DNA from: an uncultured delta proteobacterium
GTDB taxonomy: Bacteria > Myxococcota_A > Polyangia > Fen-1088
Length of the DNA stretch: 64,000 bases
Reading direction: 5' to 3'
NCBI GenBank assembly: GCA_963796685.1
Contig: CAWCMR010000025.1
Location: 1-64,000 of the forward strand
Below the pieces are notes generated by a model that saw only the letters and a list, made by a program, of their open reading frames with translations, did not search any database and was not told the origin of the DNA. Position numbers and translations under genes: made by a program. Shown here piece after piece: positions 30,168-33,991 of the stretch. Position 1 is the stretch's first letter, and the number at the start of each line of letters is the position of its first letter.

Positions 30168-31063
30168 ATGAATGATTTTCTGCTGTCAGGATTGCTGGGC
30201 GTCGTAGAAGGGCTGACCGAGTTCCTTCCGGTGCAGCTCCACGGCCCATCTGCGCATCGTCGAAGCCTTCGCCCACATCGACCTCACCAGCGGCTACTGG
30301 AAGATGTACACCGTGGTGATCCAGCTGGGGGCGATCCTGTGCCTTCCGGTCTACTTCTGGAGCGAAATCAAGCATCTCGTGGGGACGTTTCCCGGCGGCG
30401 AGGCTGGGGACCGAACGGCGCTCACCCACCCCCTCGGGCTGATCATGGTGGCCTTCGTCACGACGGCGCTTCCGGCGTTTCTCTTGACCAAGATCATCAG
30501 CAAGCACTTGGAGAGTCTCGTCATCATGGGCTCGTCCCTCGTCATCGGCGGCGTGCTGATGTGGGTGGTCGATGCCAGAAACGCGGCGGCGGAAGAGTCC
30601 GGCAGGCAGGCGGCCGGCGGCGGCCGGGTCCACACTTGGCGGATGGAGGAGATGGGGCTTCTCCAGGCTGTCTGGGTCGGGGCCTGCCAGAATCCTCTCG
30701 GCGGTGTTTCCCGGGACCTCTCGTTCCATGTCCACCATCGCTGCAGGGCAGCTGGCCGGGATGTCGCGCTCGTCGGCCCTGGAATTCTCCTTCTTTCTTT
30801 CGATTCCGACCATGGTCGTCGCCACCGGCTACAATCTCCTCAAGACCTTCCTGCCGGGTCATGCGAACCCCCTCGGAACGTCCCATATCGACGCGCACGG
30901 CTGGGCCGTGCTCGCCGTGGGGTTCATCCTCTCGTTTCTGGTTGCCCTTGCCGCCGTGGCATGGTTCATGAGCTGGGTTCGGCGGCGAGGCTTCACACCC
31001 TTCGCGATCTACCGGATCCTCTTCGGCGCCGCGGTCCTGGTTTGGGCGCTGCAGATGGGATGA
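30168..31063 (+). CDS. uppP: Undecaprenyl-diphosphate phosphatase, frameshifts near 30233 and 30690
   Basis: LGVVEGLTEFLPV(SSTAH), VIQLGAIL, FPGTSRS, ALEFSFFLSIP, FAIYRI spread over three frames. Confidence 0.9.
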
Positions 31064-31208
31064 GCCCGCGACGGAGGCGGCTGCCCGAAGCTCCAGAAAT
31101 CGTTGCGAGGAGCCCAGGGTGCAAGGAGTCGGCACGAGTGATCATCGAACCCGGCCCATACCTCAGAGTTTCTGCGGCGGACAGGCCCTTGGCTCGCAGC
31201 CCGAGCAT

Positions 31209-32342
31209 TCAGCCTGCGAAGTATGCGTGCTCCGCCTCGGTAGGCTCGTCCTCCAACAGGTCGTACCGTCCGTGTTTCATCGCTTGAAAATAGAAACAGT
31301 AGATGTCGCCCGAGCTCTCGTTGTTCAAGCTGTAGCGCTTCCACGTGCAGCCGCCACGACAGACATCGCCATAGCGGCACACGCGGCAGAACCCGCGGAG
31401 CTGTTCGGGATGAAAGGCGCGGTTGTAGGCGAATCCCGCGGCACGGTTCCAGATGGCGCGCAAGCTGGTGGTGCGCAGGTTGCCCTCGACGAAGCGGGTC
31501 TCGCCATGGCGGGCCGAAGGCAGCGAGAGACAGCCCTTCACGTCGCCGTTGCTCTCGATGGCCAGCGCCTGCATGCCCGCCCAGCAACCCAACCAGAAGG
31601 GCATGCTGACGTCGGCCTGGCGCAGATGGGCTTCAGGCCGCCCGTAGTAGCCGATGTGATCGCTCGCCACGATGTACATCCCGCCCTTGCGCTCCCGGCA
31701 GAATTCGGCAATTTGCGGCACCAACCACAGCACATCCTCGGGCGGCAATACCAGCTCGCGATGGCGGGCCATGGCGCCGGTGGCGACGGCGTATTGCAGT
31801 TGCCACGAGCGCACGCCCTCGGACACGAGCAGATCGCGCAACGCCACGAGCTGATGACGATTGCCACGATAGATGGTGGTGTTGACACCAAACTCGAGGC
31901 CCACGTCGCGTACCGTACGCAGCGCCGCGAGAACGCGTGGAAACGAGCCGGAGCCACGGAAGTCGTCGTGCTCGCGGTCGAGCCCATCGAGACTGAAGCC
32001 GACGCTGCAAAGACCTGCGCGCGCAGCTCGTTCCGCGTCGCGTGGGCTCCACGTCCACGCGTTGGAAAGGATGGCCACCCGAACCTTCTGCCTGGCCAGG
32101 CGCTCGCCGAGCACGTCCCAGTCCGGGCGCAAGGTGGGCTCGCCGCCGGTCAAGGTCACGCGCCCGCAGCGCAGCGCCACCAGCTCGTCGGCCACGCGCA
32201 GGCATTCGTCGTGCGATAGCTCGTCCTCCCGAGCTCGCCCGGCCAGCGAGCCGCAATGCCGGCAGCCCATGTTGCACCGGAGGGTGATCTCCCAGCCGCA
32301 GGCACGCGGCACGAACCCGATTCGTCGGAATACTTCGAGCAC
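31209..32342 (-). CDS. Radical SAM/SPASM peptide-maturase-type enzyme
   Basis: WEITLRCNMGCRHCGS (CxxxCxxC), TGGEP, SLDG, SPASM WLGCWAG..GDVKGCLSL and CRVCRYGDVCRGGC..C; starts 3 bp after the upstream ORF stop. Confidence 0.92.
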   Translation of the reverse strand: MLEVFRRIGFVPRACGWEITLRCNMGCRHCGSLAGRAREDELSHDECLRVADELVALRCGRVTLTGGEPTLRPDWDVLGERLARQKVRVAILSNAWTWSPRDAERAARAGLCSVGFSLDGLDREHDDFRGSGSFPRVLAALRTVRDVGLEFGVNTTIYRGNRHQLVALRDLLVSEGVRSWQLQYAVATGAMARHRELVLPPEDVLWLVPQIAEFCRERKGGMYIVASDHIGYYGRPEAHLRQADVSMPFWLGCWAGMQALAIESNGDVKGCLSLPSARHGETRFVEGNLRTTSLRAIWNRAAGFAYNRAFHPEQLRGFCRVCRYGDVCRGGCTWKRYSLNNESSGDIYCFYFQAMKHGRYDLLEDEPTEAEHAYFAG

Positions 32343-32345
32343 CAG

Positions 32346-32826
32346 CTACGCCTTCTCTGGAGAGGCGGAGGGCGCCGCCGCTGCGTCGGGCGGGGCCGCA
32401 GCGTCCGTTTCTGCCCGCTGCATATAGTAGATGTAGACGAGGGGAGGTATCGGAACGTAGGCGTCGGCGGCCGCGTCCGGGACTTGCGTTCCGGCTTCGG
32501 ATTCGCCGTCACGGGTCTGGTCGGGGGCAACATCATCTGGCGGGAGCGCGACCAGATAGGGCACGGCCATGAGCGGAAAGTCGTTCGGAGAAGTCGCATC
32601 CCTGACCTCCGGCGCCGCCAGCGGAAGGTCCTCGGTCGAAACCTTCGCCACATCCGAGACCTGCGCGGCCGAATCTCCCCCCGCATCGGCGGCTTTGGCG
32701 TGCAACGCATGTTGATCGCAGCCGGAAACGCTCAGCCCCAAGCCCACCGACGCGGGCACCACGACATTACGGGCCGTCTTGCGCAAGAATCGCTCGATAC
32801 GCTCGCGGAGACTCCTTTTCCTTCAT
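32346..32826 (-). CDS. Acidic low-complexity lipoprotein, candidate rSAM substrate (probable 1-bp indel just after ATG 32826)
   Basis: Basic leader RSLRERIERFLRKTARN, hydrophobic stretch and lipobox VSGC; Asp/Ala/Pro-rich body with Tyr motifs MAVPYLV, AYVP and LVYIYYM. In-frame TTG start at 32786. Confidence 0.7.
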
Positions 32827-33151
32827 GGACGGCCTCAGCAAGACATTGTATCTGGTTTCTTTTCGTTGGAGATAGCAGGAACGCCAGCTTCGAGCTCTTG
32901 CCAGCCAGTCCAGTGACGAGTGGTTCTGAAACGTCTTCTCACGCCATGCGTCTATCTCGATTCAGCGCACACCGCGGTCGTGGGCTGTCCACCCCAGGAG
33001 TGCAGACGACCCCATCGCGGCTGCATTGGTGTAATTGGTGGGCCGCGGGCCACGCGGGTCGCCGCGATCATCTTCCAGCTACCGCAGAACACGAATCTTC
33101 CTTATCAATCCCCGCACCCGTGCCGTTGCGATATTGAAGGAGACCATCAAC

Positions 33152-33439: not shown

Positions 33440-33642
33440 TGCCACGCCGGTCGGGAAGCTCGACATCCTCAACGCTGCTGCGGACATCCAAGAATCTGCG
33501 AGCTCCACCGTTGAATCATCTCGAACGATTGAGCGGCTCGCTTGAAGGCTACTGGAGCGTCCGCGTCAACGACCAATGGCGGATTGTCTTTCCCTGGAAA
33601 GATGGCTCCGCGATGGACGTCAAGCTGACCGATTACCATTAG
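33440..33642 (+). pseudogene. higB: HigB-type toxin remnant (5' truncated, frameshifted)
   Basis: Manual translation: KLDILNAAADI, then in a shifted frame NLRAPPLNHLERLSGSLEGYWSVRVNDQWRIVFPWKDGSAMDVKLTDYH-stop. Confidence 0.85.
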
Positions 33643-33652
33643 GAGAAGCGAT

Positions 33653-33991
33653 ATGATTCCAAGCAGCCGAACGCCAACCCATCCAGGCGAGATCTTGCGT
33701 GAAGAATTTCTCTCTGAGCTGGGGATTCCGCAGACCGAGTTGGCGGCCAAGCTCGGCATACCAGTCCAGCGCATCAACGAAATCGCCAACGGCAAGAGGG
33801 GCATTACTCCCGATACCGCATGGCTCTTCGCCGCTGCCTTTGGCACGACGCCGGAGTTTTGGATGAACCTGCAGGCTGTCTATGACTTGGCCCGCAACCG
33901 CCCAAGCCGAGCCGTCCCGCGACTGGCTGCGCGGCCCCCTGCCCAACGGACGTCAAAGACGCATGGCCATCGCCGCGCTTCGGCCGCATGA
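33653..33991 (+). CDS. higA: HigA family antitoxin (XRE HTH)
   Basis: PTHPGEILREEFL, QRINEIANGKRGITPDTA, TTPEFWMNLQ; AGGAG RBS. Confidence 0.93.
   Translation: MIPSSRTPTHPGEILREEFLSELGIPQTELAAKLGIPVQRINEIANGKRGITPDTAWLFAAAFGTTPEFWMNLQAVYDLARNRPSRAVPRLAARPPAQRTSKTHGHRRASAA

Follow-up and report, generated by a model that had tools for sequence, protein, structure and literature searches.

A radical SAM/SPASM enzyme gene paired with a gene for a candidate lipoprotein-type precursor with conserved tyrosines in Polyangia

What does a radical S-adenosylmethionine (SAM) enzyme do when its gene directly follows one for a lipoprotein-like polypeptide, and is that polypeptide its substrate? The question is raised by a two-gene cassette at positions 31209-32826 of a stretch of 64,000 nucleotides (the window) from an uncultured delta proteobacterium of the Polyangia (assembly GCA_963796685.1, contig CAWCMR010000025.1, positions 1 to 64,000). 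A preliminary description, made from the letters of the window, had taken the cassette for a radical SAM/SPASM maturase with a membrane-anchored partner that carries Tyr motifs but no YG. The results given here indicate that the two products are very probably an enzyme and its substrate.

The two-gene cassette and its conservation

The cassette has the following parts:

31209..32342, minus strand: radical SAM/SPASM enzyme gene, 377 amino acids, GTG start
32346..32826, minus strand: precursor (putative substrate) gene as in intact orthologues, where it encodes 159-160 amino acids; split in the window by one extra base
TTG 32786 to stop 32346-32348, minus strand: part of the precursor gene that is in frame in the window, 146 amino acids
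32811, minus strand: extra base (A on the plus strand, T on the coding strand), shifting the frame after codon 5
32772..32826, minus strand: N-terminal amphipathic leader helix, MKEKE followed by LRERIERFLRKTA; predicted docking element (conserved leader, model contacts 1-18)
32718..32768, minus strand: lipoprotein-type signal peptide with hydrophobic h-region and lipobox, NVVVPASVGLGLSVSG-C; Cys codon 32718-32720
32532..32582, minus strand: Tyr motif 1, DFPLMAVPYLVALPPDD; Tyr codon 32556-32558, equivalent to the orthologue DLP....PY (Tyr90); predicted modification site
32418..32453, minus strand: Tyr motif 2, PIPPLVYIYYMQ; Tyr codon 32433-32435, equivalent to the orthologue P127...Y131; second candidate site
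31184..32882, no strand assigned: block 95% identical in nucleotides to locus L022, comprising the two genes with ~56 bp upstream and ~25 bp downstream

Most of what had been reported of this locus was found again. A gap of 3 bp (32343-32345) separates the enzyme open reading frame (ORF; 31209-32342, minus strand) from the end of the partner at 32346. The peptides quoted in that description, SLRERIERFLRK, the lipobox LSVSGC, FPLMAVPYLVALPP and AYVPIPPLVYIYYMQ, are all present in the partner frame, and no YG occurs anywhere in the partner ORF. No gene for a protease, a transporter or a separate recognition element (RRE, a peptide-recognition domain) adjoins the pair. What did not hold was the reading of 32346-32826 as a single open frame: the extra base at 32811 breaks it, and the frame of the body meets a TGA at 32825-32823. 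The preliminary description evidently had a doubt of this kind, as it advised a look at the reads over 32815-32826. Taken as a whole the observation was partly confirmed, and it amounts to more than chance because the pair recurs in many loci and its Tyr positions are invariant in 28 orthologues.

An enzyme match at E <= 1e-40 was obtained in 26 of 41 related genomes, and a scan of one genome per species returned 592 confirmed stretches, the best 80 loci coming nearly all from metagenome-assembled genomes of Myxococcota/Polyangia. A partner ORF lies directly upstream of the enzyme gene in the orthologous loci L002-L005, as well as in groups of paralogues with enzymes that share 50-60% identity with that of the window. 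Partners were counted by the pattern of their leader; counting by motif proved unreliable, picking wrong frames in GC-rich DNA. By this pattern the upstream ORF qualified for 44 of 100 radical SAM matches among the fetched loci. The 56 misses include three loci without upstream DNA, the window itself, the variant leaders of L013/L050, L014/L061, L072, L084 and L096, and more distant clades. In the crown clade of the enzyme tree (a quick tree, with SH-aLRT support only) 25 of the 29 rows have a leader-pattern partner, and the other four are L012 and L051 (no upstream DNA), L027 (repeats in a broken frame) and the window. The expectation that homologous enzymes would have such partners, with conserved Tyr motifs, was thus borne out by the orthologues, the paralogues and an alignment of 28 sequences.

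The block at 31184-32882 corresponds to positions 2462-4155 of L022, the homology ending ~56 bp 5' of the start codon and ~25 bp 3' of the stop. Beyond these points the flanks of the two cassettes have nothing detectable in common (those of L022 hold a methyltransferase gene and others). Because the two genes are 95% identical while their surroundings are unrelated, the cassette moves, or is retained, as a unit. Among 101 flanking ORFs of 34 loci, no recurrent protease, exporter or RRE was seen; the neighbours that did appear were specific to subgroups, for instance a kinase resembling CheA and a TPR protein, the latter fused to the enzyme in another subgroup.

Enzyme, precursor and predicted complex

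The enzyme contains a Radical_SAM domain (PF04055, 93.9 bits) and a SPASM domain (PF13186, 35.3 bits) and nothing else recognised by Pfam, which detected no N-terminal RRE. The cluster motif CNMGCRHC contributes Cys 23, 27 and 30, and seven Cys lie toward the C-terminus (253, 271, 319, 322, 328, 332 and 349); all ten are invariant across 69 homologues, and the protein has both the CxxxCxxC motif and the Cys-rich C-terminal domain general to SPASM radical SAM enzymes. Its best match among the NCBIfam hidden Markov models (HMMs) is TIGR03913, the GDL motif peptide-associated radical SAM/SPASM maturase, at 259 bits (257.8 in the genome search; cut-off 591.75), followed by TIGR04103, the nif11-class peptide radical SAM maturase 3, at 240.3 bits (239.3; cut-off 725). 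Next come TIGR04133 (rSAM_w_lipo, 134.9 bits), NirJ2 (131), AhbD (130) and PqqE (83), and crosslinking families score low (WgkB 86, DynA 62). The two families to which kinship had been proposed are therefore indeed the best, well above cofactor-type SPASM enzymes (NirJ2, AhbD, PqqE). Judged by these scores, the enzyme is nearest to the splicease-related group, yet a member of neither TIGR03913 nor TIGR04103.

None of 201 Myxococcota genomes reached the TIGR03913 cut-off, the best score being 517 bits, and in the tree the window-type enzymes form a clade separate from the TIGR03913-like ones. The genome of the window encodes three enzymes of the window clade and a tandem pair on another contig, none of them above either cut-off. 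Public databases label window-type enzymes merely as 'radical SAM protein'. The nearest PDB chains by sequence are SkfB and PqqE, and no splicease-like structure or related complex is among the solved ones.

The precursor of the cassette is built from an amphipathic helix (~18 amino acids), a lipoprotein-type signal peptide and an acidic disordered body rich in Pro, Ala and Asp, with two invariant Tyr. The leader follows the consensus M-(K/R/S)-E-x-(E/D)-h-R-x-x-h-x-x-F-L, after which a hydrophobic stretch leads to the lipobox Cys and the low-complexity body begins. In the window the lipobox reads VSG-C and is preceded by a basic n-region and a hydrophobic h-region, as recognised by pattern; this Cys (Cys36) is invariant in 24 of 24 sequences. 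A leader profile of 42 positions, searched against 1.84 billion proteins (cluster representatives), matched 359 representatives at E <= 0.001 and 121 at <= 1e-10. Nearly all matches begin at residue 1, in proteins of 66-324 amino acids, and 144 of the best 150 contain a Cys in a lipobox-like setting. Neither the window partner nor any of 11 diverse partners matched a known family in Pfam or NCBIfam (chance-level E >= 0.065), and the window partner has neither a GDL motif nor an NCBIfam match at E <= 0.01.

In 28 orthologues (45-98% identical) the only invariant residues of the core are D82 L83 P84, P89 Y90, P127 and Y131, in the numbering of L022, and Tyr90 precedes L, I, M or V in all 28, never G. 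The versions found in the window are DFPLMAVPY (Tyr codon 32556-32558) and PPLVY (32433-32435). The X-Y-G splice motif is missing from the window partner and YG is present in some paralogue groups, the window group being a divergent branch with two Tyr sites. In the nearest paralogue group (L042/L043, with enzymes 61-62% identical to that of the window) the homologous site reads DLP....PYG. In 37 distinct partners, 227 Tyr were counted in 5398 residues of the mature part, with a repeat consensus of P-(L/V)-Y-M-A-P-x-P-D-A. The residue following Tyr is M (52%), G (14%), L (7%), A (7%) or S (6%); position +2 is A (59%) or G (11%), and position +3 is P in 43%. Tyr without any YG was found in 85 of the 150 best leader matches and YG alone in 7, and 15% of their Tyr precede G. 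The quick tree makes the partner group rich in YG and Gly and the YM group sister clades. The Tyr repeat and the lipobox would thus be old features of a wider Myxococcota set, Gly after Tyr being optional in the window clade. Across the 37 partners no second side chain is conserved alongside the Tyr, a pattern that fits a reaction on Tyr and the backbone and not a crosslink. With Ala or Gly at +2, a crosslink of the cyclophane type (aromatic-x-x) was discarded.

The known enzymes nearest to this pair are the spliceases (PlpX/PlpY with PlpA, and the binary RhaX with RhaA), radical SAM/SPASM enzymes that excise a tyramine equivalent at X-Y-G and leave alpha-keto-beta-amino residues. PlpX we take to be a member of TIGR04103. 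In binary spliceases the leader helix lies on the enzyme and the active centre holds the XYG site, according to the portion of PMC11414181 consulted. The L022 enzyme (69-sequence alignment) was modelled with residues 1-110 of its own precursor (23 rows), together with SAM and three clusters. The complex obtained an ipSAE of 0.88 (median of 3 runs), whereas the best of its three controls obtained 0.00; of the solved complexes 116 of 157 reach the mark applied to this score, as do 2 of 215 mismatched pairs, a calibration that holds roughly, own alignments and ligands lying outside it. The three runs share at least 74% of their contacts. On the side of the partner, the confident contacts are made by residues 1-18 (hydrophobic face Leu6, Ile10, Phe13, Leu14) and 80-96 (PSDLPLMAVPYLVALPP), the core of the signal peptide and the linker not being among them. 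The helix occupies the SPASM/C-terminal surface of the enzyme at 244-251 (including an invariant P-F-W), 323-327 and 364-365. The site of the motif, which includes 32, 61-66, 88-92, 112-115, 152-154 and 178-186, is formed by strand ends around the cluster and GGE motifs, so that the model places the first Tyr motif inside the catalytic barrel. In silico, the pair thus shows the two traits of a binary splicease, a leader helix bound to the enzyme and a target Tyr in the active centre, and the model supports binding of the precursor by the enzyme.

Candidate reaction, export route and alternatives

These data suggest a self-contained two-gene cassette for the post-translational modification of a ribosomally made protein. 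In the cytoplasm, the precursor helix would dock on the SPASM/C-terminal face of the enzyme and the DLP....PY motif would thread into the barrel that holds SAM and the [4Fe-4S] cluster, as in the model. Radical chemistry would take place on that Tyr. By kinship, the enzyme would most likely cut out a tyramine equivalent as spliceases do, so that an alpha-keto-beta-amino amide would remain, at Tyr-Leu/Ile/Met/Val in place of Tyr-Gly. The precursor would then be exported by Sec, lipidated at its Cys and cut by signal peptidase II, as its sequence and the precedent of the DAG-RiPPs (RiPP being a ribosomally synthesised and post-translationally modified peptide) suggest. Since this one cut would take off the helix and the signal peptide together, no dedicated protease or exporter would be needed. 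What results would be a modified polypeptide of ~120 amino acids that is held by a lipid anchor. We give an even chance to the scheme in full, that is, leader-helix-guided, splicease-like modification of Tyr followed by export, lipidation and trimming through the general lipoprotein pathway. Its lipoprotein route, taken by itself, appears probable from the signal sequence and by analogy, and tyramine excision as the reaction, proposed by analogy, falls slightly short of even. The interpretation offered in the preliminary description is on the whole partly supported, and most of the checks that it had suggested came out in its favour. Its view of a lipid-anchored product instead of a released peptide agrees with the invariant lipobox Cys and the lack of a recurrent dedicated protease or exporter.

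Several observations weigh against this scheme. Every characterised splicease site in the literature covered has X-Y-G as its target, the residue after Tyr90 is never G, and in RcsA even one DYG site stayed unmodified, so that context matters. The enzyme reaches neither the TIGR03913 nor the TIGR04103 cut-off, and the lipoprotein signal of the partners was judged by pattern alone. The support for binding is the model's own confidence, read through the rough calibration given above, and the pLDDT of the partner is 49-50, which makes its fold uncertain. A simple scan of 31000-33100 found no sigma-70-like promoter or intrinsic terminator, and the window copy has its docking helix out of frame.

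One possible alternative keeps the pair and the export route and assigns to the invariant Tyr another reaction, which could be C-alpha/C-beta cleavage, beta-hydroxylation, epimerisation or, as the preliminary description proposed, a crosslink of the Tyr; that Gly no longer follows Tyr would then signal a change in chemistry. It would account for an invariant Tyr that forms no YG in any of 28 orthologues, for the 85 of 150 leader matches with Tyr yet no YG (15% of Tyr standing before G), and for an enzyme that scores under both splicease-related cut-offs in a clade apart from the TIGR03913-like enzymes. Nevertheless we consider it rather unlikely. The splicease-related families are the nearest by far (259 and 240 bits compared to <=135), the crosslinking families WgkB (86) and DynA (62) are low, and the surroundings of the Tyr (+2 A or G, +3 P in only 43%) offer no conserved partner for a crosslink. 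In addition, sister clades of enzymes alternate in having partners of the YG or the non-YG type, an argument for a single reaction common to them. Tyramine excision is favoured for these same reasons: the only close relatives are splicease-group enzymes, no second conserved side chain offers a crosslink, and partners with and without YG alternate between sister enzymes. A more radical scenario is that the genes are mere neighbours, the enzyme making a cofactor or having another target and the upstream ORF encoding an ordinary lipoprotein. The distant similarity of the enzyme to NirJ/AhbD, PqqE and MoaA-type proteins (73-131 bits) and a precursor that fits no known family could be read in this manner. 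The pair is nonetheless kept through paralogue groups with enzymes 50-60% identical while the flanks change, and no cofactor-pathway genes recur nearby; the two Tyr motifs hold the only invariant core residues of the precursor, and the model (0.88 compared to 0.00 in the controls) sets a Tyr motif in the barrel. All this renders a chance neighbourhood very improbable.

A third scenario concerns the window copy, which may be a decaying, non-functional cassette in which the frameshift at 32811 is real and the precursor, if made, starts at TTG 32786, lacks the helix and stays unmodified. The ATG at 32826-32824 gives MKEKE, after which the extra base changes the frame, and the longest in-frame partner ORF excludes the basic leader. 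The base is present in the assembly and no read-level data from the window strain span it, public run X1, which has pieces identical to that strain, leaving 32811 uncovered. Moreover, Phe replaces the invariant Leu83 of the DLP motif in the window, and at C25:1585430 of the same genome another paralogue has nothing but the C-terminal end of its partner in frame, with no leader found there by tblastn. Against decay, the radical SAM gene is intact, and what remains of the partner is 91% identical to that of L022 over 139 residues. In a DNA alignment with the orthologous loci L022, L023 and L024, all of them without the base, it is the sole indel of the start region, and contigs of ~93-95% identical relatives in public runs X2 and X5 do not have it either. 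(Matches of the window in the public-run search were small, at most 0.17 of words, and four runs were compared.) The assembly around the cassette seems indel-prone because the uppP/BacA and HigB-like frames nearby are also broken, the former being split over at least two frames within 30304-31063 according to Pfam. For the extra base an error of assembly is judged considerably more likely than a genuine lesion, and decay of the window copy is held to be unlikely.

Compared with the spliceases, the window pair shares HMM kinship (TIGR04103, 240 bits), an enzyme and a precursor without a Y protein as in the binary systems, an invariant core Tyr and, as far as the consulted portion of PMC11414181 allows comparison, a predicted leader alpha-helix on the enzyme with a Tyr motif in the active centre. 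It departs from them in scoring one third of the TIGR04103 cut-off (725) and in a target Tyr that precedes L, I, M or V and not G. Its precursor also differs, with a lipoprotein signal peptide after the helix in place of a Nif11/NHLP or other leader and with a disordered body of ~120 amino acids; the modification itself is a prediction.

TIGR03913 provides the top HMM match (259 bits), but the window enzyme stays below the cut-off of 591.75 in a separate clade, and its partner has no GDL motif; the peptide motif of that family we take, from its name and the preliminary description, to be Y-x10-GDL. Next to Myxococcota enzymes more like TIGR03913 (up to 517 bits) are precursors that combine a lipobox with repeats of the form x-Y-G-(A/L)-P-x-D. 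Of twelve such loci that passed a two-YG filter the first eight were examined, and three of these eight have precursors of this kind, each with a CPxC...CPFCG module, a lipobox and the repeats:

L117, 340-1593
L120, 701-1384
L121, 2708-3202

The repeat closely resembles the x-Y-M-A-P-x-P-D of the window family and is its YG counterpart, whereas the precursors begin with the Cys-rich module and those of the window family with an amphipathic helix. The third-best HMM match of the window enzyme, TIGR04133 (134.9 bits), lies far under its cut-off of 425 bits; the short name of that model suggests that enzymes of the family are paired with a lipoprotein neighbour.

The portion of PMC13056109 consulted describes the DAG-RiPPs as RiPP-lipoprotein hybrids made by ChrH-type MNIO enzymes, and establishes for MNIO enzymes the maturation of RiPP precursors through the lipoprotein pathway. 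As far as that portion shows, the window family resembles them in a precursor with a signal peptidase II signal peptide and a lipobox Cys (in the window, by pattern only) beside a modifying enzyme. There is likewise no dedicated leader protease or exporter, and the lipoprotein pathway would be the route of maturation. The window enzyme is, by Pfam, a radical SAM/SPASM protein and not an MNIO (DUF692) enzyme, and the window family has an additional conserved helix before the signal peptide, its lipidation being predicted. The terms 'radical SAM', 'rSAM' and 'SPASM' do not occur in the main text of PMC13056109.

The literature searched, with Scott et al. 2022 outside it, yielded no description of a radical SAM enzyme paired with lipobox precursors or of splicing without YG. 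The claim of an undescribed system stands to that extent; the system is not an isolated one, being one divergent branch of a large family that includes YG-rich paralogues. Scott et al. (2022, Chem) reportedly typed spliceases widely and mined them by YG frequency next to radical SAM-SPASM genes, as a review passage has it. Mining of that kind, as there outlined, could have caught the YG-rich relatives and not the window group. Tentatively, and at less than even probability, we propose that this family of Polyangia and other Myxococcota joins splicease-type radical chemistry on the Tyr backbone with lipoprotein-pathway RiPP maturation, which have so far been described separately. By preceding the signal peptide, a docking helix would keep the precursor on the cytoplasmic enzyme as it is being made and put off its export, Tyr before almost any residue (M, L, A, S, I, also G) would become alpha-ketoamide sites, and signal peptidase II would double as the leader protease. 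The products would be disordered polypeptides with a lipid anchor and many electrophilic warheads, and might, for example, act as protease inhibitors bound to the envelope of predatory or social bacteria.

If this proposal is true, X-Y-G is no fixed requirement of spliceases, and most of the family has escaped searches based on YG frequency. Splicing at Tyr-Leu/Met/Ala would make the X-Y-G rule too narrow for both finding and engineering tyramine splicing, and two-component enzymes with short docking helices might be used to place beta-amino/ketoamide sites in proteins. Should the chemistry differ, the family would represent a new Tyr-directed radical SAM reaction with hundreds of natural substrates. 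With either chemistry, lipoprotein-pathway maturation of RiPPs would extend from MNIO to radical SAM enzymes, and the data point to uncultured Myxococcota of soil and peat as bearers of a class of disordered envelope proteins that are modified and anchored by lipid.

Related cassettes and neighbouring genes

Further cassettes occur in the genome of the window, two of them of the same clade. One of these two (C25:842337-844130) has an intact Gly-rich precursor with (L/V)YG(L/T)GG motifs. In the other (C25:1585430-1586563) the enzyme carries a C-terminal extension (an open frame of ~550 amino acids), and the frame upstream of it holds no more of a partner than its C-terminal end (..LYLAQLPVPRS). 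At C6:19225-19761 a leader-bearing precursor, MREQEMRLRVFRFLK..., has a lipobox and YSAP/YMGP/YVAP/YMAQ repeats with no adjoining radical SAM gene, and is perhaps an orphan substrate on which an enzyme acts in trans. The tandem radical SAM/SPASM pair at C5:388590-390715 is more distant (40% and 36% identical) and lies downstream of a long protein, whose N-terminal part is cytoplasmic and which further contains a segment resembling a lipobox, a region rich in Gly and, at the C-terminus, a domain with Cys that ends in ..VPVYKGVSFPD.

In other genomes, L014 and L061 have upstream of the radical SAM gene a stop-to-stop frame of 417 amino acids that holds a precursor with Y-G/A/M motifs, in which LYGPPP, EYGVPF, AYMGPF and DYAAPF alternate with Cys-rich CxDGxDNDGDGxxDCxDxDC repeats. 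In the YMAQ subgroup (P0052-P0120) the enzyme ends in a fused TPR domain and has a length of ~540-550 amino acids, and in the YM subgroup (L030-L032 4164-4685) a separate TPR protein gene directly follows the enzyme gene; the window group has neither form.

Run X15, an RNA library with a relative ~93-96% identical, covers 31900-32139 and 32246-32665 of the window. Its metatranscriptome contigs touch both genes, one of them crossing their junction; such contigs cannot prove transcription.

The neighbours of the cassette in the window are a convergent, frame-broken uppP/BacA gene, one ORF without a family, and HigB/HigA-like genes. In uppP/BacA (30168-31063, plus strand) Pfam BacA positions 40-166 are in frame from 30304 and 153-256 from 30572; the N-terminal piece from 30168, in the third frame, has no Pfam match and is BacA-like by eye alone. 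The HigB-like toxin ORF in the region 33511-33991 (plus strand) has 43 amino acids corresponding to profile positions 51-91 of 91, looks truncated or frame-broken, and is followed by an HTH_3 antitoxin-like gene.

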